NCBI GenBank assembly: GCA_947624045.1
Contig: CANQIL010000001.1
Location: 28,978 to 92,977 of the forward strand
Direction: 5' to 3'
DNA: 64,000 bases
Source: an uncultured Bacilli bacterium
GTDB lineage: Bacteria; Bacillota_I; Bacilli_A; RF39; UBA660
This document shows, in pieces, positions 3,115 to 50,489 of this stretch. The first letter of the stretch is position 1; each line of letters begins with the position of its first letter. The notes under the pieces are model-generated. The model saw only the letters and a program-made list of their open reading frames with translations. It searched no databases and had not been told where the DNA came from. Both the position numbers and the translations under genes were made by a program.

Positions 3115-4857
3115 TTACATTTTTTTTGGAACTTTTATACCTAAAATATCTAAAAGTAAAAGGTTTAAGTCATATACTATTTTGGTTAAAACAAGACGGC
3201 TTTCTTTTAGGGAGGTATCTTGTTCAGTTAGGATTTTGTTTTCGGCATAAAACTTGTTGTAGGTGGCAGTTAGGTTGTATAAAAACTCGCATATTTCATT
3301 TAAAGATTTGGTTTCTAAAGATTTATCGATAACGGTTGGTAGGGTTAAAATGTACATCGCTAGTTGCCTTTCTTCTTTGGTTGGGAGGGTGGTTATGTTT
3401 TGGTAGGTAGTTTGAGATTTGGTTAAAAGTGATTTCATTCTGATAGTTGAATATAAAAGGTAAGGGCCGGTTTTACCCTCTAGGTCGGCAAATTTTTCTT
3501 CTTCAAAAATGTAGTCGGTACTGCGGAAAGCTAGGAAGTCGGCATATTTTAAAGCGGCAATGGCGACATCTTTAGAGATTTCTGTACGTTCTTGGTCATC
3601 GGTGATGTCAGGGTTTAGACGTTTTAGGGTTTCTTCATTTATTAATTTAATTAGGTCTTTTAAAGGCATAATACCGCCATCTCTAGTTTTAAAAGGTTTA
3701 CCGTCTTTGCCATTCATAGTACCAAAGCCGATGAATTCTAGTTTGACACTATCGGGAACGATTTTAGAAAGACGAGCGGCACGGAAGACTTGTTCAAAGT
3801 GTAAGTTTTGGCGTAAGTCGACACAGTACCATATTTCATCAGGCGCAAATTCTTTTTGACGCTGTAGAATTGTGGCTAAGTCGGTAGTGGCATAAGATAG
3901 GGAGTTGTTTGATTTGATAAATAGTAAAGGTGGCATAGGAGCTTTGTCTTCGGTAGTGGCTACTTCAACTATAGTGGCATTGTCGCTTAGTTTTAAAAGA
4001 TTCTTTTGGGTGAAAATGTCTTTTAGTTCAGAAAGGTAGCTAACGGAATCACTTTCACCTAGCCATAGTTCAAAAGAAACATTTAAGTCATCATAAACTT
4101 TTTTGATAGCTTCTTTAGAAATATTAACTACTTTTTGCCATAGTTCGTAATAGCCTTTGTCGTGATTTTGAATTTTAAAAGTAATTTGACGAGCTTCTTC
4201 AAGATAGGCTTCGTCCTCTTTAGCTTTTAGGGAAGCGGTAGGATAGATTTCTTCTAAGTCGGCATTGGTAATTGGTAGAGAAATTTCACTATAATCGCCT
4301 TGGTAAGATTCATCAAAAAAGGCAAGATGTGGATAACGCTTTTTTATTTCTAATAAGACTAAACCTAGAGGGCGGCCATAGTCGCCTAGATGGGCATCGC
4401 CTAAGCAGTCATAACCTACTAATTTAGCTAGACGTTTTAGGGCTTCGCCTAGATTTGCGCTACGTAAGTGACCGACGTGTAAGGCTTTAGATACATTGGC
4501 GCCACCATAATCAATGATTATCTTTTTAGGCTCTTTTTTATCAATACAAGAAAAATGGTCATTATTAAATTCGTTTAGGACGGAAATTAAAAAGTCCGTT
4601 GAAAGGGTTAAGTTGATAAAGCCCGGAGGAGCAATGTTGATATTAGTAAAACGGCTATCAGTTTGTAGGACGTTTTTTATATCTTCGGCTATTAGCATAG
4701 GATTTTTATGATACGTTTTAGCTAGAGTTAGGGCGTTATTTATTTGATAGTCGCCTAAGTCTTTTCGATTAGACGGTAGTAAGATGACATTATCTTCATA
4801 GCCGGCTTCTAGGACTAGATTAGTTAAATCGGCATTTAATTTTTTTAATATACTCAT
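3115..4857 (-). CDS. argS: arginine--tRNA ligase
   Basis: 580 aa with class-I HIGH motif HVGHLRS. Overall ArgRS-like layout ending ...KKM. Confidence 0.95.
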   Translation of the reverse strand: MSILKKLNADLTNLVLEAGYEDNVILLPSNRKDLGDYQINNALTLAKTYHKNPMLIAEDIKNVLQTDSRFTNINIAPPGFINLTLSTDFLISVLNEFNNDHFSCIDKKEPKKIIIDYGGANVSKALHVGHLRSANLGEALKRLAKLVGYDCLGDAHLGDYGRPLGLVLLEIKKRYPHLAFFDESYQGDYSEISLPITNADLEEIYPTASLKAKEDEAYLEEARQITFKIQNHDKGYYELWQKVVNISKEAIKKVYDDLNVSFELWLGESDSVSYLSELKDIFTQKNLLKLSDNATIVEVATTEDKAPMPPLLFIKSNNSLSYATTDLATILQRQKEFAPDEIWYCVDLRQNLHFEQVFRAARLSKIVPDSVKLEFIGFGTMNGKDGKPFKTRDGGIMPLKDLIKLINEETLKRLNPDITDDQERTEISKDVAIAALKYADFLAFRSTDYIFEEEKFADLEGKTGPYLLYSTIRMKSLLTKSQTTYQNITTLPTKEERQLAMYILTLPTVIDKSLETKSLNEICEFLYNLTATYNKFYAENKILTEQDTSLKESRLVLTKIVYDLNLLLLDILGIKVPKKM

Positions 4858-7936: not shown

Positions 7937-9961
7937 TTATGGCACAAAGGACAAGCGACAAGAATAATTTGGATTAGAATATCCATTATTAAAGAACACA
8001 CTAAACACTCCAGCGTCTGTATTACGACTGTAATAGCCACCACGGACAAGCCACGAGGAAGTGCGACTAACAAATTCAGTTTTATCACTATACCAATTAG
8101 CTGTTTCTAACAAACTATGACCATAACAATTTTCTCCGTTGCAAGCTGATTCTAGCTTAGCTAATGCCCAATCTTCCATTGTTGGATTGGCACTTTTATA
8201 TTTGTTATAATATTCAGTGTTAGGTAATTCATATATTCCTGTTGGATTACCCTCTTTATCTAAGCCTTTAAATCCCGAACTTCCTAAATTATCTCCTGCT
8301 GCAATTTGTCCATTATTCTCTCCTACTCCTTGCGCATCATATTCTAATACTCCCATTACATATTCAGAAACTCCTCCACTTATATCATAAATACCATATA
8401 TTGTTCCAGTTGTACTTGCTCCTGGACCTGCTTGACCTTTTCCTGTTCCTAAATTAGTTATATTATTATAAAAAAATTGTTGTTGATTTGTTTCATATTG
8501 ACTTGATGTTCCATTACTGCTTCCCGTTAAATAATAACTTGATTTATTTTGATATATTTCTTTATTTACTCCTATATAATTTTTGTTTCCATATTTGCCA
8601 TATTTACTTTGGGATAGATAGGCGACTGTTCCCCATTCATCATTTTTCATCATGTGTAAATTGCCACTAGCACTAAAGCCATAATTGTTTGCATAGTGTA
8701 GTTGCATACTCCTAGCCATATAGAAAAAACTACTTACTGTTTGATTTCTTATAGATGAAAGGCCAGGTTTTACTGTTACATTACTTACATTACAATTTGT
8801 ATCAATACAAGCTTGAACATCTGATAATAAATTACCTGTTGGTTCAAACTTTCCTACCCATAGGCCACTTCTCTTTTCCCCACCAAAATCAAAGGCTTCA
8901 TTAGTACGCCAATTGGTTGGTGTATCTCCTGTATATTGTGCACTTCCTGTTTCTGTTACTTTCGAAATAAACTTTACATCTATTTCGCCTGGTAAATCTT
9001 CCGTTGGATTATCGTTACCAAAACTGGCTTTTCCAAAATAAGCTTTGCCATTTTCACTTTTTATGGTATATGAGTATCTTGGTATCCACACCCACATGGT
9101 ATTGATATAATCCATCTCTATTGAAGTTCCAACTGCTGCTTCTTTTATTTCATCTCGTTTATCGGCAATTATTGTTACAGCATTGGCCCATTTTTGATTA
9201 GAGTAGTCATACCAATTATTATTCTCATTATTTATATCAGCTTTTTTCCATGTGCCTTCTGTTGCACTAGTTGCTTCATAATATACTGGTATCATATCGC
9301 CATTTAATTCTGGTTTGTTTGGTATATTATCTAGGCTTGAACCATTTTGTCCTTCTGCTTCTTCTTTTGTTAAACTTTCAAAGATAAAGCCTCTATCTAA
9401 TCCTCCTAAAGTAACAGGATTTTTAGGAATGTCTTCGGCACTATGACTAAAGGTTACTCTTAAAGTTACTATTTCTTGTGTTTCTGCTTTTAATAAATCA
9501 ATACTAGAAAAGTCAGTATTTCCATTAATAGCTGTTTTACTATAATTGACCTCATATACTACATTATTTTTTAATAAATCTTGATCACTTGAAGCAGTCT
9601 TACCACTTCCTACAAATGTTAAATTAGAACTTTTGCCTGTTACGTCTACTAATTTAGCAGAAATAGTTCCGGTATTTTTTACAGGAATAGTAAAAGTACA
9701 AGAATCTCCTGGTTTAGTAAATTCGACACTCATTCCAGAAATACTAGTCCCATCAATTGTACCTATACTACATTTAGCCATTCCTGCCTTGGTAGTTTGT
9801 ATTTCATCTTTTAAAAATACTACGTCCCACGTACTAGCCGGCACTTTTGCTGTACCTGTTATATTTAATCTTGTTGACAATAAAGCATAACCAATTGACA
9901 AGACAAGTACTGCTGCGCAAAGACAAGCTATTATAATTAATTTAGTTTTTCTACTATTCAT
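7937..9961 (-). CDS. secreted or surface protein, paralog 1 of the 20282..22366 product (C-terminal C-type-lectin/FGE-like domain); function unknown
   Basis: N-terminal signal anchor KLIIIACLCAAVLVLSIGYALLS. Long blocks shared with the paralog: PELNGDM.PVYY, MDYINTMWVWIPRYSYTIKSENG, HMMKNDEWG.VAYLSQS.YGKYGN, GKGQAGPGASTTG, YVMGVLEYDAQ. Tail ...RGGYYSRNTDAGVF...SCRLSFVP. Confidence 0.8.
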   Translation of the reverse strand: MNSRKTKLIIIACLCAAVLVLSIGYALLSTRLNITGTAKVPASTWDVVFLKDEIQTTKAGMAKCSIGTIDGTSISGMSVEFTKPGDSCTFTIPVKNTGTISAKLVDVTGKSSNLTFVGSGKTASSDQDLLKNNVVYEVNYSKTAINGNTDFSSIDLLKAETQEIVTLRVTFSHSAEDIPKNPVTLGGLDRGFIFESLTKEEAEGQNGSSLDNIPNKPELNGDMIPVYYEATSATEGTWKKADINNENNNWYDYSNQKWANAVTIIADKRDEIKEAAVGTSIEMDYINTMWVWIPRYSYTIKSENGKAYFGKASFGNDNPTEDLPGEIDVKFISKVTETGSAQYTGDTPTNWRTNEAFDFGGEKRSGLWVGKFEPTGNLLSDVQACIDTNCNVSNVTVKPGLSSIRNQTVSSFFYMARSMQLHYANNYGFSASGNLHMMKNDEWGTVAYLSQSKYGKYGNKNYIGVNKEIYQNKSSYYLTGSSNGTSSQYETNQQQFFYNNITNLGTGKGQAGPGASTTGTIYGIYDISGGVSEYVMGVLEYDAQGVGENNGQIAAGDNLGSSGFKGLDKEGNPTGIYELPNTEYYNKYKSANPTMEDWALAKLESACNGENCYGHSLLETANWYSDKTEFVSRTSSWLVRGGYYSRNTDAGVFSVFFNNGYSNPNYSCRLSFVP

Positions 9962-10028: not shown

Positions 10029-10033
10029 TTTAA

Positions 10034-10062
10034 ATTATATTAAAGCTTTCGAGTATAGTCAA
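10034..10062 (-). promoter_or_regulatory. candidate sigma-A promoter of the 7937..9961 gene
   Basis: Minus strand TTGACT, 17-nt spacer, TATAAT. Confidence 0.5.
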
Positions 10063-10067
10063 TACTC
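10051..10067. promoter_or_regulatory. operator-like inverted repeat 2
   Basis: GAGTAT-agtca-ATACTC overlapping the -35 element of the predicted promoter. Confidence 0.5.
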
Positions 10068-10119
10068 AATTTTGTTTTTTCTTGAGTATTATTGATAATC
10101 TTATAACTAGGTGATGCTT

Positions 10120-10332
10120 ATGAAAATAAAAGCTAATAATTATGAAGCTAAAGAGGTAGTTAGAATTATTAGAGAATGGACTGAATTAACACAAAAAGAG
10201 TTTGGAAAGACTTTATCTAGAAGTAGAGATAGTATTAATAATATTGAAAATGGTAGAAATAGAATGTTTTTAAATGACTTTATTGATATGTGTAAGAAGC
10301 ATAATATTGATATTATAATAGAAAAAAAATAA
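10120..10332 (+). CDS. XRE/Cro-type helix-turn-helix transcriptional regulator
   Basis: About 70 aa with an HTH_3-like core (LTQKEFGKTLSRSRDSINNIENGRN). AGGTGA lies 5 nt before this ATG. Divergent from the paralog-1 gene. Confidence 0.8.
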   Translation: MKIKANNYEAKEVVRIIREWTELTQKEFGKTLSRSRDSINNIENGRNRMFLNDFIDMCKKHNIDIIIEKK

Positions 10333-10351
10333 GCTTATTAAAAGCCTATTA

Positions 10352-20008: not shown

Positions 20009-20170
20009 GAGTAAATCGCTCTATGGCACGAGAGCTAAACGGCAAGAGTAGTTGCTGTGGGAATAGCCAGAGTTGTTGTGCACCGTCTAGAACACTCCTG
20101 CATTCGTGGTATTGTTGTAGTTGCCGCCGCGTTTGAACCACGGGTTACTGCGGTTGACAAAGTTGGCATA
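20009..20170 (-). repeat. DGR-like template repeat (TR), noncoding GC-rich copy of the 3' end of the upstream gene
   Basis: Homologous to 20264-20428. Carries an in-frame TAG. The 81-nt core 20090-20170 has AAC x5, AAT x2 and AAA where the coding copy varies. Confidence 0.7.
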
Positions 20171-20263: not shown

Positions 20264-20428
20264 GAGTAAATCGCTTACGCTCTATGGCGCGAAAGCCAAG
20301 CGACAAGAGACGTCGCTGTAGGAAATGCCAGAGTTGTCGTACACGTGGAACACTCCCGCACCCGCGGCATCGCTGTAGCTGCCGCCACGTAGGAACCACG
20401 GGTAACTGCGGATGACAAAGGTGGCATA
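20264..20428 (-). repeat. DGR-like variable repeat (VR): last 49 codons plus 18-nt 3' flank of the 20282..22366 gene
   Basis: The core 20348-20428 differs from the TR core at 14 positions, and 13 of these are adenines in the TR sense strand. Locally GC-rich in an AT-rich gene. Confidence 0.7.
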
Positions 20429-22366
20429 ATCACCGTACCAACTCGAAGTTTCTGATAAAGCGTGTCCATAACACACCCCTCCATTACAAGCTGATTCCGG
20501 TTTGGCTGATGACCAAGTGCTTGATGTTGGATTAGCACTTTTGTATTTATTGTAGTATTTCTCATTTGGCAAATCATAACTTCCTGTTGTACTACTTCCA
20601 CTACTATTTAACCCCCTAAATCCTGATGAACCTGCCACGATTTGTCCGCTATGTTCATCTTCTTCTTGAGCATCATATTCTAATACACCCATTACATATT
20701 CATATGCTCCTCCCGACATATCATATATTCCTGTTATATTTCCAGTTGTTGAAGCACCAGGTCCTGCTTGACCTTTTCCACTTTCTAAATTAGTCATATC
20801 ATTATAGACATAGCTTATTGCTGAACTACTTGCACTTGGACTTCCTCCACTATGTCCTGTTATATAGTTACTATCATTATTTATATATACTTCTTTATTA
20901 GCTCCTGTATATTCACTATTTCCATATTTGCCATATCTACTTTGGGAAAGGTATGCTACTGCTCCCCACTCATCATTCTTCATCATATGTAAGTCGCCAT
21001 TATTTTCATCAAATCCATAAGTACTTGCATTATTTTCTTGCATACTTCTTGACATAAAGTAGAAATTGCTTACTTTTTTACTTCTTATTGAAGCTATACC
21101 CGGTTTTACCGTTACACTACTTACATCACAACTTGTATTTGTACAACTTGAAACTGTACCTGTTGGCTCAAATTTTGAAACCCATATTCCTCCTCTTTTT
21201 GTTGGAGTATTGACTTCTTCATCAGTTTCAGGAAAATCAAAAGCTTCATTTGTATACCAACCACTTACTTCATCACCTATGTACCTAGCACTTCCTGTTT
21301 CTCTTTCATCTTCTTTCGATATGAATTTTACATCTACTTCTCCTGGCAATTTTTGGGTTGGCATTGTACAAGATGTTTTCTTACCATAATAATTTGTTCC
21401 TCCATTTTCACTTTTTATTGTATATGAATATCTTGGTATCCATACCCACATCGTATTTATGTAATCCATATCTATTGGAGTATTTACTTCATATTTTTTT
21501 ACTTCTTCTCGCCTATCGGCAATTATTGTTACGGCATTTGCCCACTCTTGATTAGCGTAATTATACCAACTATTATTTAAGTTATTTTCATCGGCTTTCC
21601 GCCACTCACCATTTTTATCATTTATTTTATAATAATATACCGGTACCATATCGCCATTTAATTCTGGTGGATTTGGTGTTGTTGGCTCCTCTACTGTTGG
21701 TGCATATCCATTTATAACTATGTCTTCTAATACATTATCGATTATTATAGTTTCATTAGAAAAGGTATAATCAGTATAATTTCTTCCGTCCATTGTTACA
21801 CTACATACTTCCGAATCTTTTCCTAAATTTTGTTTTAATTGTCCACCTTCTAAGACTTCTTGTACGTAATCATCAGTATTGCCTAGACCATTGTAAGTAA
21901 CAGTATAAATTGGAACAAATTCAAAAGTTAATAAATATGTTTTTGTTTCTGCTTGAGTTGAATTAAAGGTAATAGTGAATTCTTTAATACCACCTGAGCC
22001 TACTAATTTAGTACCTATCATATTTTCTTGTACTTCTACATTTTCATCAGTATCATATATTTCTAAAATACCCATATTTACTGTAGAATAATTAGTAATT
22101 TCAACTGTATAAGTAATACTAGTTGCTTGTTCTAAGGTATTTGTATAGCCTAACTTTACTTGATTCTTAGAATAATCTGAGTATTCTATGGTAACATTAT
22201 CCGGTTTACTATTAGCAGTAAAGTTAGTTACTCTAACATCTTCTTGAGGGCGATAATTTACTTCACCACTTATTTTTAAATCGCTATTTAAAGCAGAATA
22301 ACCTATACTCATACCTATTACAATTACTGCTATTAAGATTAGAATATATTTATTGTACTTTTCCAT
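20282..22366 (-). CDS. secreted or surface protein, paralog 2, with a C-terminal C-type-lectin/FGE-like domain; candidate DGR target
   Basis: Signal anchor MEKYNKYILILIAVIVIGMSIGYSALNS aligns with the paralog-1 N-terminus. Shared central and C-terminal blocks. Tail ...WFLRGGSYSDAAGAGVFHVYDNSGISYSDVSCRLAFAP. The ORF-track ATG at 22417 overlaps the predicted -10 box and was rejected. Confidence 0.85.
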   Translation of the reverse strand: MEKYNKYILILIAVIVIGMSIGYSALNSDLKISGEVNYRPQEDVRVTNFTANSKPDNVTIEYSDYSKNQVKLGYTNTLEQATSITYTVEITNYSTVNMGILEIYDTDENVEVQENMIGTKLVGSGGIKEFTITFNSTQAETKTYLLTFEFVPIYTVTYNGLGNTDDYVQEVLEGGQLKQNLGKDSEVCSVTMDGRNYTDYTFSNETIIIDNVLEDIVINGYAPTVEEPTTPNPPELNGDMVPVYYYKINDKNGEWRKADENNLNNSWYNYANQEWANAVTIIADRREEVKKYEVNTPIDMDYINTMWVWIPRYSYTIKSENGGTNYYGKKTSCTMPTQKLPGEVDVKFISKEDERETGSARYIGDEVSGWYTNEAFDFPETDEEVNTPTKRGGIWVSKFEPTGTVSSCTNTSCDVSSVTVKPGIASIRSKKVSNFYFMSRSMQENNASTYGFDENNGDLHMMKNDEWGAVAYLSQSRYGKYGNSEYTGANKEVYINNDSNYITGHSGGSPSASSSAISYVYNDMTNLESGKGQAGPGASTTGNITGIYDMSGGAYEYVMGVLEYDAQEEDEHSGQIVAGSSGFRGLNSSGSSTTGSYDLPNEKYYNKYKSANPTSSTWSSAKPESACNGGVCYGHALSETSSWYGDYATFVIRSYPWFLRGGSYSDAAGAGVFHVYDNSGISYSDVSCRLAFAP

Positions 22367-22412
22367 TTTTGCAAACACCTTTTTTCCACCAATTATATTT
22401 TTATCTAAGTAT

Positions 22413-22443
22413 ATCATACCCCCCCCCCATTAGGTCTTGTCAA
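22413..22443 (-). promoter_or_regulatory. candidate sigma-A promoter with a homopolymeric G10 spacer
   Basis: Minus strand TTGACA-agacctaatGGGGGGGGGG-TATGAT. The spacer is 19 nt, against an optimum of 17. Confidence 0.6.
22419..22428. repeat. homopolymer tract C10 (G10 on the coding strand)
   Basis: Ten consecutive C read directly from the sequence. Exceptional in this AT-rich context. Confidence 0.95.
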
Positions 22444-22620
22444 GAACTTTTTAATTTTTTTTACAGTTTGCACTATAATTTAATTTTTTATTTTACAATG
22501 GAAATTTTAAGACATTTAAAAAGCCTTGAAATGATACATTTTTTAAGAAAATGTAATTTTCAAGACTAAAAGTATTATAAAAACTAATTTATATAGAATC
22601 TTTTTTGTAATTTTACTTTG

Positions 22621-24734: not shown

Positions 24735-24756
24735 AAAAAAGACTTAATATTAAGTC
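24735..24756 (-). terminator. rho-independent terminator of the two-gene islet operon
   Basis: Perfect palindrome GACTTAATATTAAGTC overlapping the stop codon, followed on the minus strand by UUUUUU. Confidence 0.6.
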
Positions 24757-25181
24757 CATAGTGGCATCTTTCTTATCTCATTTGCAGAATTATCGGCATA
24801 ATAAGCGGTAATAAACTTTGCTGTATTATTACTATTAATTCTAATAATTACAACATAATCTTCTGGACTTATTATAGCAACTCGTCTATCTTTGTTATAT
24901 CTTTTTTTATCTCTATCCCATCCTAAATGCAATTCGGCTTTAGGATTTTTTAATACATATTCTATCCAATCAATTCTTAATGCTCTATTCTCAGAAAACA
25001 CATCTTTATTTCGCTTTAATTTATTTGAAGATTCATAAAATGCGTGTTCAAACTGATCTTCATAAAATTTAACTTCAATTCCATCAAATGTTTGTATTCC
25101 TTTTTTACAGTATTTTTCTACATAATATTTTTTATATTCATCTGGAGTAGATAAAATTACAAAACTTGGCACGTCATACAT
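24750..25181 (-). CDS. hypothetical protein
   Basis: 143-aa ORF separated by 1 nt from the upstream DUF3800-like ORF. No motif recognised with confidence. Confidence 0.6.
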   Translation of the reverse strand: MYDVPSFVILSTPDEYKKYYVEKYCKKGIQTFDGIEVKFYEDQFEHAFYESSNKLKRNKDVFSENRALRIDWIEYVLKNPKAELHLGWDRDKKRYNKDRRVAIISPEDYVVIIRINSNNTAKFITAYYADNSANEIRKMPLWT

Positions 25182-25182
25182 A

Positions 25183-25878
25183 TTATAACCTTATTTCAAA
25201 TAAATTGAATTTTGTAGCATTTTTAGTAGTTGGTTTCAATTCGTGCCCTAATTTAGTTTCAAGATAACTAATTAATTCTAACTTAACTTTTGAATTACCA
25301 TCTTTGCCAAAATTCATTTTATATGATGTTGCACCCATCAATATATCTTCTAATTGTAGAAAAACTGACTCATGTGACTCTATAGCATATATTTTCTCTA
25401 TACTATTAGGATGATTCTTATTATTTAAACATTTCTTTAAATCATTTAGTACATTTGGATCGCTATAAGTTTTTATATCTGTATATATTGTATATTTTGA
25501 TTCTGATGAAATCCAATTATTTAATAATTGATAATAGAACTTATAAAACCCCAATTCAGCATTATCATTATGATACTTTAAATCTATCTTATTTGAGTCT
25601 ATGCAAATTGTTCTAAAATTAATGTTATGAGTAACATATATATCTATCATTTCTTTATATAAATTTAAATACTTTTTAGTCACTCTATTCCATTTTAATT
25701 CAGTTTTAATGTTTAGATTATACTTTTTTTTCAAATCATTTATTTTGTTTTTTATTTCTAACCTATCATCTCTACTAATCATTACTCCACCAATAAATAT
25801 ATATTTATTTGTATTAGATATAACTTCTTTATTATAGAAAAGGTCTTGTCTGCTTTCGTCACAATATAATTCTATCAT
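25183..25878 (-). CDS. DUF3800-like protein
   Basis: N-terminal IELYCDES resembles the DUF3800 y.DESG motif. GAGGTG lies 5 nt before this ATG. Confidence 0.55.
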   Translation of the reverse strand: MIELYCDESRQDLFYNKEVISNTNKYIFIGGVMISRDDRLEIKNKINDLKKKYNLNIKTELKWNRVTKKYLNLYKEMIDIYVTHNINFRTICIDSNKIDLKYHNDNAELGFYKFYYQLLNNWISSESKYTIYTDIKTYSDPNVLNDLKKCLNNKNHPNSIEKIYAIESHESVFLQLEDILMGATSYKMNFGKDGNSKVKLELISYLETKLGHELKPTTKNATKFNLFEIRL

Positions 25879-25941
25879 TACATCACCTCGAATTACAAAC
25901 ATATTATACTATATTTCTACATATTTTTTAAGTATTTTTCA

Positions 25942-33364: not shown

Positions 33365-34000
33365 TTATTTATTTTTCATAACGACTAAGCTTCTAGTACT
33401 ATTTTCGATAGGTAAAGTAAAAGTTTCTATGCTTACAATTTTATATTTTGAAGATAATTTGTTTTGGACTTCCTCATTTAATTCTTCTGAGATGTTGCCT
33501 TTCATTGCGATAAAGATGCCCTCTTTTTTTACTAAAGGCATTGTGTAAGTTACAAGCTTTTCTATGTTCGCAACGGCTCTAGCGGTAACTATGTCGTATT
33601 TTTCTTTGTGAAACTCCCCTCTTTCGTGGATAGCTCTTATGTCTGTAAGGGAAAGTTTGGTGATAATGTCATTTAGATAAGTTACTCTTTTTTGAAGAGC
33701 ATCTAGTAAAGTTATGTTTAAATTAGGAAAAACTATTTTTAATACTATACCGGGGAATCCGGCTCCACTGCCTACATCACATAAGGTGAGATTTTTAGTT
33801 AAATCAACTACTTTAATGAGGGTAAGACTATCGTAGAAGTGTTTCAAATAAACTTCGTTTTTCGTTGTGATTGTGGTTAAGTTAATCTTGTCATTCCACT
33901 CAATTAATAGCGTATAAAATGTTTCTAGTTGAGCTAGTTGCTTGTCCGTTAAAGAGATATTTAGTTTGGCTAGTTCGGTAATAAATTCTTCTTTAGTCAT
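33365..34000 (-). CDS. rsmG: 16S rRNA (guanine527-N7)-methyltransferase
   Basis: SAM motif DVGSGAGFPG. Overlaps the mnmG stop. Confidence 0.93.
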   Translation of the reverse strand: MTKEEFITELAKLNISLTDKQLAQLETFYTLLIEWNDKINLTTITTKNEVYLKHFYDSLTLIKVVDLTKNLTLCDVGSGAGFPGIVLKIVFPNLNITLLDALQKRVTYLNDIITKLSLTDIRAIHERGEFHKEKYDIVTARAVANIEKLVTYTMPLVKKEGIFIAMKGNISEELNEEVQNKLSSKYKIVSIETFTLPIENSTRSLVVMKNK

Positions 34001-35852
34001 TTTTGTACCTCCTTAAATAGACCATTAATATAGAAATGTCGGCAGGATTTACGCCACTTATTCTGGTTGCTTGCCCTATCGTCGTGGGATTTATTTCGAC
34101 TAATTTTTGACGAGCTTCACTAGCTAAGTTAGGTATTTTAGTGTAGTCTATATCTTTTGGAATTAGTTTTTCTTCCAGGGCTAGCATTTTTTGAGCTTCT
34201 TTTTCGGCTTTTTTGATGTAACCCTCGTATTTTGTATTGATTTCAACTTGCTCTTTTATATCATCGGCATAAGGAATATTTACGAATTTTTCTAAGTGGT
34301 CTATTTTAACCTCAGGACGTTTTAGTAAGTCATAAAGAGATAGGCCGTCTTTTAGAGGATTGGTATGAATTTCTTCTAAGTAGTCATTAACTTCTTTTTT
34401 AGGAGTTATTCTAGTTGTTTTTAATAAGTCAAAAAGGTCTTTAATATCTTGCTTTTTTTGTTCGAAACGGGCATATTTTTCAGAAGAGATTAGCCCTACT
34501 TGATAGGCATAGTCAGTTAAACGGAAGTTAGCGTTATCGTGACGTAAAAGTAAGCGGTACTCGGCCCGCGAAGTTAATAAGCGATAAGGGTCTTTGATAC
34601 CTTTGGTTACTAAGTCATCTATTAAAACTCCAATGTAGGCTTCGTTTCTTTTTAAAATTAAGGGGTCTTTTTTTTCTAGTTTTAAAGCGGCATTTATTCC
34701 GGCAATTAGGCCTTGACCGGCAGCTTCTTCGTAGCCACTTGTGCCATTTATTTGACCGGCCGTATAGAGATTTTCTATTAATTTTGTTTCAAGTGTTCTT
34801 TTCAATTGAGTAGAATCAATGGCGTCATACTCTATGGCATAAGCATATTTTAAGATTTGGGCGTGTTCTAGACCGGAAAGACTATGGACCATTTGCTCTT
34901 GAATGTTATGAGGCATACTGGTAGAAAAGCCTTGAAGATAAATATCATCGTAATAAAGGCTTTCGGGCTCTAAAAATAGTTGATGACGTTCTTTATCGGA
35001 AAAACGAACAACTTTATCTTCGATAGATGGACAATAGCGGGGTCCTACTCCCTCTACATAGCCACCATACATACTAGATTCTTTTAAATGCTCTTTGATT
35101 ATTTCGTGTGTTTTTTTAGTTGTATATATTAAATGACAAGGTATTTGCTTATCTACATCGTAGTAAGGCTTGTTGTCAAAAGAAAAGGTACGAACAATTT
35201 TATCACCTGGCTCTTCACTAGTAACGGAAAAGTCAATGGAATTTTTGGCAATTCTTGGAGGGGTTCCTGTTTTTAAACGAAGAATTTTAAAGCCTAGTTC
35301 TTTTAGGTGGTTGCTTAAAAATTTACTGTCTTGTTCACCGTGAGGGCCACCAGGTGTTTTGTTTGCGCCGGTTAAAATCATAGCGCGTAGATAAGTGCCG
35401 GTTGTTAGAATAACGGCTTTAGAAATAATCTTGGTAGAGTCAGATAAAATTACTCCCCCTACTCTGTTGTTTTCAACGATAAGATTTTCTACCATAGCTT
35501 CTTTTATTTCTAGGAATGGCTCATTTTGGAGAGTTTTGAGCATTTCTTTTGGATAAGTTATTTTATCGGCTTGGATTCGTAAGGCTTGAACTGCTGGTCC
35601 CTTTTTTGTATTTAACATTTTTACTTGAAGAGCGCTTTTGTCGGCATTTTTACCCATTTCACCACCAAGAGCGTCAATTTCTCTTACGACGATGCCTTTA
35701 GCGGGACCCCCTATAGAGGGGTTACAAGGCATATCCGCAATATTTTTTATGTTTCCGGTAATTAGTAAAGTATGATGTTTTTTACGAGCACAAGCTAAGG
35801 CGGCTTCACATCCGGCGTGGCCTCCACCTACTACAATTATTTCATAATTCAT
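33993..35852 (-). CDS. mnmG: tRNA uridine 5-carboxymethylaminomethyl modification enzyme MnmG
   Basis: FAD motif VVGGGHAGCEAA. 619 aa. Confidence 0.97.
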   Translation of the reverse strand: MNYEIIVVGGGHAGCEAALACARKKHHTLLITGNIKNIADMPCNPSIGGPAKGIVVREIDALGGEMGKNADKSALQVKMLNTKKGPAVQALRIQADKITYPKEMLKTLQNEPFLEIKEAMVENLIVENNRVGGVILSDSTKIISKAVILTTGTYLRAMILTGANKTPGGPHGEQDSKFLSNHLKELGFKILRLKTGTPPRIAKNSIDFSVTSEEPGDKIVRTFSFDNKPYYDVDKQIPCHLIYTTKKTHEIIKEHLKESSMYGGYVEGVGPRYCPSIEDKVVRFSDKERHQLFLEPESLYYDDIYLQGFSTSMPHNIQEQMVHSLSGLEHAQILKYAYAIEYDAIDSTQLKRTLETKLIENLYTAGQINGTSGYEEAAGQGLIAGINAALKLEKKDPLILKRNEAYIGVLIDDLVTKGIKDPYRLLTSRAEYRLLLRHDNANFRLTDYAYQVGLISSEKYARFEQKKQDIKDLFDLLKTTRITPKKEVNDYLEEIHTNPLKDGLSLYDLLKRPEVKIDHLEKFVNIPYADDIKEQVEINTKYEGYIKKAEKEAQKMLALEEKLIPKDIDYTKIPNLASEARQKLVEINPTTIGQATRISGVNPADISILMVYLRRYKND

Positions 35853-35902
35853 TTTTGTATCATTCCTCTCACGATAAAATCACGTTTTTATACGTAAAAT
35901 TT

Positions 35903-46444: not shown

Positions 46445-48955
46445 GTGGATAGATTAGAGAAAAATAATATTGTTAAAGAGGTACAAGATTCTTTCTTAGA
46501 TTATTCAATGAGTGTTATTACGGCTCGTGCTATTCCTGACCTTAGAGATGGTTTGAAACCGGTACATCGTCGTATTTTATATTCAATGTTTGTATCTGGT
46601 TATACGCCTGATAAGCCACATAGGAAGAGTGCTAAGACAGTCGGTGAGGTTATGGGTAATTTCCATCCGCATGGAGATTCTTCTATTTATGAAGCTATGG
46701 TTAGAATGGCTCAAGATTTTTCTTACCGATATATGTTAATTGATGGGCATGGTAATTTTGGTAATATTGAGGGATATGGAGCTGCGGCTATGCGTTATAC
46801 TGAGTCGCGTTTGTCTAAGATTTCTCTAGAATTATTAAGAAATATCAATAAAGATACAGTTGATTTTATTCCTAACTTTGATGAAAGTGAGAAAGAGCCT
46901 ACAGTTTTGCCATCTCGTTTTCCAAATATTTTGGTAAATGGAACTACGGGTATAGCGGTTGGTATGGCTACGAATATTCCTCCTCATAATTTGGGTGAGG
47001 TTATTGATGGCTGTGTTGCTTATATTGATAATCCGGATATTGATTTAGATGGGTTGATGAAGTATATTAAGGGTCCTGATTTTCCGACTGGTGCGATTAT
47101 TTTAGGAAATAGTGGTATTAGAAAGGCTTATGAAACGGGTAGAGGAACAATTACTATTCGTAGTAAAGCGCAAATTGAGGAGAAAAATGGTAAGCAATAT
47201 ATTATAATTGATGAGGTTCCTTATGGGGTTAATACTTTGGAGCTTAAAAATAAAGTGGCCGAGCTTGTTCATAATAAGGTAATTGATGGTATTAGTGATT
47301 ATCATTCTGATTTGAAAGATGGTATAAAGATAACTATTACTTTAAAGAAAGATGCTAATGCGCAGGTTGTTTTAAATAAGTTGTACAAGCATACGGCTTT
47401 TCAAACTAGTTATGGTATAATCTTTTTAATGTTAGACCAAGGGGTACCTAAGACTTTGGGTCTTAAGGATATTATCGTTAAATACATTGATTATCAAAGG
47501 GAAGTAATTATTAGAAGAACGAAGTTTGATTTAGATGTAGCGGAAAAAAGAGTTCATATTTTAGAGGGCTTAAAGATTGCTTTGGATAACATTGATGCGG
47601 TTATTAAGTTAATTCGTGGGTCTGATAGTGATGATGAGGCTAGAGCTGGCTTGATGGAGAACTTTAAGTTAACGGAGATTCAGGCTAATGCAATTCTTGA
47701 GATGAGATTACGTCGTTTGACTGGTTTGGAACGTGAGAAAATTGAGAATGAGTTAAAGGATTTGCTTGCGACTATTGAGGAGTTGAAGTCTATTTTAGCT
47801 AGTGATGAGAAGATTTTGGAAGTTATAAAGAATGAGCTTCTTGAAATTAAGGCTAAATATGATGATGAAAGACGTACGAATATTGATATGACGGCTATTG
47901 AGTATATCGAAGATGAGTCTTTAATTCCTGAGGAAGATATTATTGTTACTTTGACAAATAATGGTTATATTAAGAGATTACGTACGGATACTTATCGTAC
48001 ACAGAACCGTGGTGGTGTAGGTATCAAGGGTATGTCGACGAATGAGGAAGATTTTGCTAAGCATTTGGTTTCTATGAAAACTCATGATTACATTTTGTTC
48101 TTCTCTAATAAGGGTAGAGTCTATAGAATGAAAGGTTACGAGATTCCGGAATTTTCTAGACAGTCTAAGGGATTACCTATTGTTAATTTATTGCCATTAG
48201 AAAAAGAAGAGAACATAAGTTCGATAGTAGATTTAAAGGCTAGTGATGATGATTTTACTAAGTATTTGGTTTTTGCTACTAAAGATGGTATTGTTAAGCG
48301 TACGGCAATTGAAGAGTTTGATAATATTAGGAAAAGTGGTAAGATTGCGATTGTTTTAAAGGAAAATGATGAGCTTATCAGTGTTCGAAAGAGCTGTGGA
48401 AAAAATGAAATTATAATCGGAGCTAGTAATGGTAGAATGGTTCGTTTTGATGAAAATGAAATTCGTTCTATGGGACGTAGTAGTTCTGGTGTTAAAGGTA
48501 TTGACCTTGAGGGTAGTAAGGTTGTAGGAGCTGAGGTTATTCAACCTGGTGAGTATGTCTTGATTGTTACTGAAAAGGGTTATGGTAAAAAAAGTTTAAT
48601 TGATGAGTATAGACTAACACATAGAGGTAGTAAGGGTGTTAAGGCTTACAATATTACTGATAAAAATGGTACTATGGTTGCTTTGAAGACATTTAATGGT
48701 GATTATGAAAAAGAATTAGATGTTATTGTTGTTACGGATAGTGGGGTATTTATGAAGATGCCATTAGACCAGATTTCTACTTTGAAACGTGCTACGCAAG
48801 GTGTTAGATTGATTAATTTGAAAGATGAGCAATTGGTATCAACTGTTACTATTGTAAAGAAAGAGGAAGAGATTCCTGATGATGACAGTGATAGTGATAG
48901 TGAGAACTCAGAGGTTACTGCTACAGATACGGTTGTGGAAAGAACTGAAGAGTAG
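46445..48955 (+). CDS. gyrA: DNA gyrase subunit A
   Basis: GTG start. Active-site region AAMRYTE, QRDR-like [14 protein letters not shown], acidic C-terminal tail. Confidence 0.98.
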
Positions 48956-49235
48956 TTAAAGTAAAAAATTAACTTAGTTATAAAGGGTAAATCGATAGTG
49001 GTTTACTCTTTTTTTGTAAAATAGTTTTGTGTTTTATGTAAATTTTTGTCTGTGGAAAAAATATTTTTTGAGTAGAATAGTTTTTTCTTTTGAATTAATG
49101 TGTTAGAAATTTGTAGATATTTTATGTGAGTGTAATAGTAACAGGTATTTTGATAATTAGTTTAAATAGTTATATTACTATCACTGTAAAAATTGTGTCT
49201 GTGGATATTTATTTTATAAAAATATATAGTAAATT

Positions 49236-49249
49236 ATTTCCCGGGAAAT
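49236..49249. promoter_or_regulatory. Noc-binding site (NBS), perfect ATTTCCCGGGAAAT
   Basis: Exact match to the B. subtilis NBS palindrome. Embedded in a 24-bp perfect palindrome AAATTATTTCCCGGGAAATAATTT. Confidence 0.75.
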
Positions 49250-49294
49250 AATTTAGTGAAAATGAAGATAAAATATTATAAGCAAAAAATATAA

Positions 49295-49310
49295 TGTTCC
49301 ACGTGAAACA
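49295..49310. promoter_or_regulatory. parS: parS centromere site, perfect TGTTCCACGTGAAACA
   Basis: Exact 16/16 match to the Firmicute parS consensus TGTTNCACGTGAAACA. Confidence 0.85.
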
Positions 49311-49591
49311 ACAATTCAAATTTGAAATGTGTTTTTATTATTTTTAGTTAATTATTTAAAGTCAAAAAATTGTGGTAATTGAAATAAAAATTATCTTATT
49401 TTTTAATAATTTAATATAATGTCATTATCAATATGTCGAAGTGTGCTTTTTAATCAATTGTTAAAGATAGACGAAGAAAGTATTTAGATATCTATTTATT
49501 ATTTTGATATTTATTAAAATTAATAGATATTTTGCTTAATGATGTAAAATTGTGTCTGTGGATATTTTATTTTATATAACTATAGTAAATT

Positions 49592-49605
49592 ATTTCCCGG
49601 TAAAT
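49592..49605. promoter_or_regulatory. NBS-like site with one mismatch (ATTTCCCGGTAAAT)
   Basis: 13/14 match to the NBS. Same flanks as the other copies. Confidence 0.55.
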
Positions 49606-49646
49606 AATTTGCTGAAATAAAGATAAAATATTATAAGAAAATGAAA

Positions 49647-49662
49647 TGTTTCACGTGGAACA
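49647..49662. promoter_or_regulatory. parS: parS site, perfect (TGTTTCACGTGGAACA, opposite orientation)
   Basis: Reverse complement of TGTTCCACGTGAAACA. Confidence 0.85.
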
Positions 49663-49698
49663 TAGTAGATATATGGTAAAACTAACATAAGAAAAAAT

Positions 49699-49712
49699 AT
49701 TTCCCGGGAAAT
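49699..49712. promoter_or_regulatory. NBS, perfect ATTTCCCGGGAAAT
   Basis: Exact match. Confidence 0.75.
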
Positions 49713-49754
49713 AATTTATTGGAAAAGAAGATAAAATATTATAAGAAAATGAAA

Positions 49755-49770
49755 TGTTTCACGTGGAACA
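49755..49770. promoter_or_regulatory. parS: parS site, perfect (TGTTTCACGTGGAACA)
   Basis: Exact match in reverse orientation. Confidence 0.85.
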
Positions 49771-49806
49771 TAGTAGATATATGGTAAAACTAACATAAGA
49801 AAAAAT

Positions 49807-49820
49807 ATTTCCCGGGAAAT
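49807..49820. promoter_or_regulatory. NBS, perfect ATTTCCCGGGAAAT
   Basis: Exact match. Confidence 0.75.
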
Positions 49821-49862
49821 AATTTATTGGAAAAGAAGATAAAATATTATAAGCAAATATAA

Positions 49863-49878
49863 TGTTCCACGTGAAACA
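49863..49878. promoter_or_regulatory. parS: parS site, perfect TGTTCCACGTGAAACA
   Basis: Exact match. Confidence 0.85.
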
Positions 49879-50315
49879 TTAAATTAGTATTTACTTTTTT
49901 TATTCTTGTCTTTGACAGTTGTTGAATGAAATAACTCTCTAAACTATTAAAAAATAAGGAAAAAATGAGAGCTTTTTTTCTCAAAAAAGTTGCGTACCTT
50001 TCTACTTATTTAATCACTAGAAAAATTTTTTTAGAAATTAGTTAAAAGCTTGTTTTTAAGCCAAATTCTTGAGGTACATTCATTTTTATACAGTTTATGT
50101 CTTACAAATGTTACTCCTTTAGATAGTATTATTATAGGATTCAAATTTAAAATCTTCTATTATCTTTTATTAATCATTTATAGTCATTTGTAGAATCTAT
50201 TTTTAGTTTTAATAATTTAATTATCTCATGACAGGTTGTTTTTTAGAACAAGTGTCAAAGATAGGTGGATATTTTATTTTATAAAAATTTATTGAAATAT
50301 TATAAGAAAATAAAA

Positions 50316-50331
50316 TGTTTCACGTGGAACA
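50316..50331. promoter_or_regulatory. parS: parS site, perfect (TGTTTCACGTGGAACA)
   Basis: Exact match in reverse orientation. Confidence 0.85.
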
Positions 50332-50375
50332 TAGTAGATATATGGTAAAACTAATAACTAAACATAAGAAAAAAT

Positions 50376-50389
50376 ATTTCCCGGGAAAT
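50376..50389. promoter_or_regulatory. NBS, perfect ATTTCCCGGGAAAT
   Basis: Exact match. Confidence 0.75.
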
Positions 50390-50429
50390 AATTTACTAAA
50401 ATAAAAATAAAAATTATAAGAAAATACAA

Positions 50430-50445
50430 TGTTCCACGTGAAACA
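50430..50445. promoter_or_regulatory. parS: parS site, perfect TGTTCCACGTGAAACA
   Basis: Exact match, about 50 nt upstream of the SRP RNA. Confidence 0.85.
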
Positions 50446-50489
50446 TTAAATTAGTATTTACTTTTTTTTTATAATAATATAAAATATGT

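Follow-up and report, generated by a model that had tools for sequence, protein, structure and literature searches.

The 64,000 nucleotides of uncultured gut Bacilli DNA analysed here ("the window") contain a run of ten Gs just upstream of the gene at 20282..22366, between what appear to be the -35 and -10 hexamers of its promoter. This raises the question as to whether the run serves as a slipped-strand switch for the gene, as the first-pass annotation had proposed, whether it is a promoter element with a fixed preferred length, or whether it has no function at all. The run certainly stands out from its surroundings. The window DNA is 31% GC, the G10 is the sole G/C run of at least 7 nt within it (the next longest is 6), and an analytic first-order Markov estimate from the window sequence gives about 0.009 expected runs of at least 10 nt in 64 kb, so that the earlier statement that a 10-nt G/C run is unlikely by chance in such AT-rich DNA holds. 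The reading that we favour, with a probability of about 70%, is that the G10 acts as a slipped-strand switch in the spacer of a sigma-A-type promoter that would drive a membrane-anchored, DGR-diversified surface protein.

The candidate promoter and the start codon

On the minus strand, positions 22443..22413 read TTGACA-agacctaat-G10-TATGAT with a 19-nt spacer, exactly as had been described. The -35 hexamer TTGACA (22438..22443) matches the consensus at 6/6 positions. It is followed by the non-repetitive part of the spacer, agacctaat (9 nt, 22429..22437), by the G10 homopolymer (C10 on the plus strand; 22419..22428), which is the proposed slipped-strand length switch, and by the -10 hexamer TATGAT (22413..22418), which matches the consensus at 5/6 positions and contains an ATG at 22417. 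All four elements were read directly on the minus strand, and with the G10 lying between recognisable -35 and -10 hexamers, the length of the tract sets the spacer of the candidate promoter. The predicted 5' leader of 46 nt (22367..22412, minus strand) has a Shine-Dalgarno-like AGGTG at 22380-22376. It is similar in length to the 40-nt leader of a tract-less paralog (L084) and nearly identical to the leaders of the sister promoters at L092 and L093. The leader also holds a second TATAAT (22397-22392), 21 nt downstream of the tract, which has no -35 partner; GGTATG occupies that position.

Upstream, the gene ychF ends in an intrinsic terminator (22516..22567, minus strand), with a hairpin of -15.6 kcal/mol (z = -4.95) followed by UUUUU. 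This terminator isolates the promoter of the target gene, which therefore requires a promoter of its own. A consensus scan of the ychF-target intergenic region with spacers of 16-18 nt returned no other promoter candidate, and the TTGACA/TATGAT pair around the G10 appears to be the sole good candidate promoter of 20282..22366.

Gene callers have begun the protein at ATG 22417, which is in frame and lies within the -10 hexamer, giving products of 709 or 711 aa (P0001, P0121). The true start is ATG 22366, giving 694 aa, because the paralogs P0003, P0004 and P0005 begin with MEKYNKY and because a stop codon follows the ATG that corresponds to 22417 in the leaders of the sister paralogs. In addition, ATG 22417 lacks a usable Shine-Dalgarno spacing. 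An upstream reading frame running through the tract was also considered and rejected; the TTG of the -35 hexamer would be in frame at G8 or G11, but has no ribosome-binding site.

Two further regions of the window deserve mention. At 24750-25902 (minus strand), a DUF3800 gene is paired with a weakly DUF4258-like gene, and the pair is flanked by an abgT-family transporter gene on one side and, on the other, by the gene for a GNAT acetyltransferase, which in turn precedes ychF. At 48960-50480 (plus strand), 1.5 kb separate an ORF ending at 48955, presumably gyrA, from the SRP RNA. This stretch holds no ORF of at least 120 aa. A unit of roughly 108 nt occurs in it 5-6 times, every copy containing the palindromes TTATTTCCCGGGAAATAA and TGTTCCACGTGAAACA; a comparison of the repeat stretch with Rfam gave no match.

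The gene product as a DGR target

The product of the target gene (20282..22366, minus strand; 694 aa) is predicted to have an N-terminal transmembrane anchor, beta-sandwich domains and a C-terminal DGR variable-protein fold. Searches of the protein against Pfam, NCBIfam and PDB sequences gave no family match. The AlphaFold model (pLDDT 77.9) has an N-terminal helix at residues 2-29, and TaqVP (5vf4) is its sole significant structural match in the PDB (Foldseek E = 2e-6, probability 1.00). As modelled, the product would be a membrane-anchored surface or interaction protein of the contingency type.

A DGR variable region (VR; 20281..20428, minus strand) occupies the 3' end of the gene and was compared with the TR of L092, the locus of the paralog P0005. 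This locus contains a VR, a TR, bAvd and an RT (RVT_1), with bAvd and RVT_1 located after P0005. The target VR has 26 mismatches to the L092 TR, and 23/26 of these fall at TR adenines. P0005 shares a 161,290-bp NCBI contig with the window protein, which is identical to P0121, and on the ENA contig of L002, one of the two other assemblies of the target locus, a P0005 variant (P0123) is located about 52 kb away. Since the VR matches the distant L092 TR nearly perfectly except at adenines, the target gene is, judging by its sequence, a genuine DGR target that is served in trans, with the working TR, Avd and RT about 50 kb off and outside the window. Its earlier designation as a candidate DGR target is therefore borne out by the adenine-specific mismatches, the TaqVP-like fold and the RT and Avd encoded in the genome. 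Within the window itself, neither RT nor Avd was found by Pfam searches of candidate ORFs and a YxDD motif scan. A YADD match in the 628-aa ORF at 33996-35879, which we take to be MnmG/GidA, was dismissed as a chance occurrence.

A second TR-like sequence lies just downstream of the target gene (20017..20170, minus strand). Over the first 84 nt it does not differ from the L092 TR (L092 5813-5970), and its 3' half has a 3-nt insertion and non-adenine changes relative to that TR. Compared with this adjacent copy, the target VR shows 40 differences, of which 18/40 are at TR adenines, plus a 3-nt indel. The copy is probably a decayed remnant. The target thus resembles TaqVP both in fold (E = 2e-6) and in the adenine-specific mismatches between VR and TR, and it differs from described DGR variable proteins by an RT acting in trans from some 50 kb away and by the decayed TR copy adjoining the gene. 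The VR is identical in three assemblies, a weak test of ongoing diversification since these are consensus sequences of near-identical strains.

Avd and RT cassettes adjoin the sister gene P0005 and also an ortholog. In the ortholog locus L085, which has a complete DGR cassette in the order target, Avd, RT, a 133-aa protein with a MutS domain-I-like region is encoded at 3291-3692 between target and Avd, an unusual accessory gene for a DGR. We also noted that the VR/TR repeats interrupt assemblies: the 57-kb ENA contig NODE_211 (L002) has both its ends there, and the L011 contig begins exactly at a G9 tract. These breaks are consistent with repeat or heterogeneity problems at the elements concerned.

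Besides the DGR, the paralogs show signs of exchanging sequence with each other. Between the window allele and the L001/L002 alleles, the only differences are clustered SNPs and a 6-nt indel, all within a single patch (window 21201-21337, minus strand), and the L001 version of this patch, 154 nt long, matches the P0005 paralog at 100% identity. Likewise, the nine SNPs between L092 and L094 are clustered within 52 nt. These patterns suggest gene conversion between paralogs.

Poly-G tracts in sister promoters and across the family

The same species carries two further promoters of this kind. The sister promoter of P0005 reads TTGACA-ggacagtat-Gn-TATGAT, with G9 in assembly ERZ27249368 and G10 in ERZ27249370. 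The flanks of the tract are identical in the two, and the single G is the only indel in 3 kb between the two sequences. The third promoter, that of P0003 (L093), has G10. Other paralogs do without a tract. As had been stated for paralog 1 (7937..9961), its promoter, TTGACT-17 nt-TATAAT, has none, and the tract-less paralog P0002 has an 18-nt spacer. At 10030-10340 of the window, the paralog 1 promoter is flanked by palindromes (GAGTAT...ATACTC), and nearby there is an apparent divergent small ORF that is helix-turn-helix-like by eye. This suggests classical repressor control of paralog 1 instead of a poly-G switch.

Tracts are by no means restricted to this species. A profile search with one genome per species returned 79 family loci, nearly all of them from gut MAGs labelled "uncultured Bacilli" or "Tenericutes" from rabbit, zoo animals and chicken (Candidatus Onthousia), often with at least ten paralogs per genome. 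The tract-bearing MAGs come from at least five unrelated studies. These 79 loci plus the window contain 52 G/C runs of 7-11 nt, and in every case (52/52) the Gs are on the family gene's sense strand. A tract (G7-G11) lies within 300 nt of the 5' end of the reading frame in 39 of the 73 family genes with an evaluable 5' end. Thirteen tracts could not be assigned automatically, and nearly all of these precede genes that are cut off or genes with the same signal-anchor N-terminus; the exceptions are one tract before a different secreted protein and one G7 that is a ribosome-binding site.

The context of the tracts falls into several classes. TTGAC is found 0-9 nt upstream of the tract in 21/52 cases, with TTGACA-N9, -N8, -N5 and -N1 arrangements, and in further classes the tract lies 12-14 nt upstream of a perfect TATAAT. 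The N9 architecture, that is, the distance from the -35 hexamer to the tract seen in the window, is shared by L092, L093, L003, L085, L052 and L017, and throughout this class TAT(A/G)AT directly abuts the tract. Among these seven independent loci, G10 with its 19-nt spacer is present in 5/7, G9 in 1/7 and G7 in 1/7, and a 17-nt spacer in 0/7. In two genes the tract is located within the coding region: L059 has a G9 inside its first 15 codons, in frame, and L073 has a G9 in the 5' coding region that ends the ORF after 13 codons, the full ORF being restored by G8 or G11. The presence of the tract in promoters as well as in coding 5' ends is best explained by its mutability, since hypermutability is the property for which a tract would be kept in both places.

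Outside the family, a generic scan for TTGACAAAATNNNAC-G7+-TATAAT gave six matches, all before unrelated secreted proteins and with G8-G10 spacers. Two JGI/ENA metagenome contigs (L086 and L089) have TTGACA-N9-G10-TATAAT, again with a 19-nt spacer, before unrelated signal-peptide proteins, and the arrangement occurs in other organisms, one of the contigs having come from a sample of European hare. Promoters with a poly-G spacer may be widespread in gut metagenomes.

Proposed switch mechanism, parallels and alternatives

In the proposed switch, polymerase slippage during replication would add Gs to the tract or remove them. Tract length would set how far apart the -35 and -10 hexamers lie (19 nt at G10, 18 at G9 and 17 at G8), and promoter strength would consequently change in a fraction of cells, in a manner that is heritable yet reversible. 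By analogy with the systems discussed below, the promoter would be weak or silent in the assembled G10 state, partly active at G9 and fully active at G8. The first-pass annotation had pointed to the loss of two Gs as the way to the optimal 17-nt spacer. It is correct that G8 gives 17 nt, but the one-step change from G10 to G9 (18 nt) may suffice, and this single step may be the working switch. The claim of phase variation itself has gained indirect support from the recurrence of tracts in the family, the tracts in coding regions and the G9/G10 difference at the sister promoter; on the other side, the target's own tract is G10 in 3/3 assemblies (window, L001 and L002). This constancy speaks against a switch, but it is a weak test because the assemblies are consensus sequences of near-identical strains. 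Additional alleles were sought with little return: the exact flanks of the target locus with free tract length had 0 matches in JGI metagenome contigs, exact-protein look-ups of the 711-aa window product, P0004 and P0122 gave no match, and among the matches listed for P0001 were L001 and L002 again.

Switches of this type have been dissected in other bacteria. In Treponema pallidum, the poly-G of tp0126 separates the -35 from the -10, and transcription is best when the spacer measures 17 nt; the tprE/G/J/L promoters permit expression up to G8 and are off at G10 (PMC7864442). The tprL promoter is active with G8 and close to background with G10, tracts of 7-11 nt occur together in vivo, and the poly-G position served to correct a start codon that had been mis-annotated (PMC7864442). 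The poly-G spacer of porA in Neisseria meningitidis works as in tp0126, with an optimum of 17 nt, and in Neisseria porA and opc more generally the length of the homopolymer sets the -35/-10 spacing and provides a graded "volume control" (PMC7864442). The likeness between T. pallidum and the present family lies in poly-G tracts of ~7-12 nt in the promoters of paralogous surface-protein genes, and on our side further includes the family of paralogs, the polymorphism between G9 and G10 and an annotated ORF that is too long. The differences are equally clear: T. pallidum is a GC-rich spirochaete pathogen in which outer-membrane beta-barrel proteins are switched and the mechanism was tested experimentally, whereas the target belongs to AT-rich uncultured gut Bacilli and to membrane-anchored DGR variable proteins predicted from sequence. 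Opc, with its poly-C over the -35 region, is resembled by the family classes with the tract 12-14 nt upstream of TATAAT. The Neisseria systems differ in belonging to Gram-negative pathogens, and for porA the fully expressed 17-nt state is commonly observed, whereas the common assembled state of the target promoter is 19 nt.

Two other systems are instructive. In Mycoplasma hyorhinis, poly-A tracts in the promoter spacers of the vlp genes switch each lipoprotein gene independently. As in the target family, this concerns multigene surface proteins with a spacer homopolymer for each gene, in this case in a low-GC Bacillota relative with a small genome. The vlp tracts are poly-A and their products lipoproteins, compared with poly-G in the target family, and the second layer of variation in vlp is a change in size (repeat number) rather than DGR retroelement mutagenesis. 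In the "phasome" of Campylobacter jejuni, G/C runs of at least 8 nt are scarce in an AT-rich genome, cluster in genes for surface structures and serve as contingency loci. L059 and L073, with their intragenic tracts, resemble these loci; the Campylobacter tracts are mostly intragenic, whereas those of the target family are mostly in promoters.

The main rival, to which we give a small but real share of the probability, holds that the G-tract is a fixed cis-regulatory or structural promoter element with a preferred length near G10, for example the binding site of a regulator or a rigid A-like stretch allowing a spacer of 19 nt to function, and that differences in length are incidental. The prevalence of G10 in the N9 class speaks for it. 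The 19-nt G10-N9 arrangement recurs in diverged orthologs and paralogs (window, L093, L003, L085, L052), no locus of the class is at 17 nt, and the target locus has G10 in all three assemblies, so that G10 could be a selected functional length and not an "off" state. The class with TTGACN-(t/ta)-G8/9-N6-TATAAT moreover holds a 16-nt spacer despite differing G counts (L048 vs L051). The N9 pattern by itself fits either populations that are mostly "off" or a selected functional G10. A fixed element does not account for the tracts within coding regions (one of which is frameshifted), since a promoter element would be meaningless there, nor for the variable position of the tract relative to -10 and -35 between classes, nor for the sister promoter that differs by one G between otherwise identical strains. 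In addition, the G-rich spacers of porA and tp0126 are still optimal at 17 nt (PMC7864442). Two details of the target promoter also weigh against a simple length switch. One is the second TATAAT, 21 nt downstream of the tract; the other is that the Gs from position -14 upstream might serve in part as an extended -10, which would make spacer length less critical.

Much less probable is that the promoter lies elsewhere and that the tract is transcribed, acting post-transcriptionally through mRNA structure, stability or reiterative transcription, or affecting translation from ATG 22417. This alternative draws on the reading frame, which is open back to ATG 22417 just after the tract (the start chosen by gene callers), and on the perfect TATAAT downstream of it at 22397-22392. 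That TATAAT, however, has GGTATG where its -35 partner should be, and upstream of the tract the scan with 16-18 nt spacers gave no promoter candidate; what precedes the tract is the ychF terminator. Translation from ATG 22417 fares no better given its lack of usable Shine-Dalgarno spacing, the stops that follow in the sister leaders and the MEKYNKY start of the family N-termini. An intramolecular G-quadruplex was considered separately and is impossible, as there is only one G10 run.

Finally, a functionless tract, whether a chance homopolymer or a sequencing or assembly artefact, is already effectively refuted: two-colour Illumina chemistry is a known source of poly-G artefacts and all assemblies are consensus sequences, but chance predicts only about 0.009 such runs per window, L001 and L002, independent ENA assemblies of this species, share with the window an identical intergenic region that includes the G10, always internal to the contig and flanked by unique sequence, which excludes a poly-G sequencing artefact, and tracts of 7-11 nt occur on the sense strand in MAGs of at least five unrelated studies, nearly all 5' of the same family.

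The slipped-strand switch thus remains our preferred reading. Its mechanism is of a known kind, that of porA, T. pallidum tp0126 and tpr, and vlp, and not a new principle; new are the lineage (commensal uncultured gut Bacilli), the family-wide deployment and the coupling to a DGR target. In a full-text literature search, no account emerged of a DGR target whose promoter is switched by a homopolymer. Taking the data together, we lean towards the view that three variation systems are stacked on one membrane-anchored surface-protein family of uncultured gut Bacilli (MAGs from rabbit, hare, chicken and zoo animals). At the first level, each gene would have its own slipped-strand poly-G switch, placed in the promoter as a rule and within the first codons in some cases. 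At the second, a DGR would mutagenise the C-terminal ligand-binding site, with some RTs acting in trans on several paralogs, and at the third, the paralogs would undergo patchy gene conversion with each other. If true, this would allow a combinatorial choice of which receptors are expressed and with which binding site. We know of no description of this combination of poly-G switch, DGR and gene conversion for commensal Bacillota.

There are practical consequences for annotation and for the interpretation of DGRs. The start codon of the target gene is miscalled, and frameshifted "pseudogenes" of the family may be genes that are off-phase. The VR of a DGR target may be silent in most cells, which would bear on how such targets are interpreted. 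A G-tract of G8 or longer on the sense strand, 5' of a gene, could serve as a signature for contingency loci in MAGs. Pathogens such as Neisseria, Treponema, Campylobacter and Mycoplasma are the classic users of homopolymer switches, and the present case points to pathogen-style switch logic, genome-wide, in an uncultured commensal gut lineage. If confirmed, the expression and the binding specificity of one receptor family would be randomised independently of each other, which may bear on how gut bacteria evade phages or host IgA.
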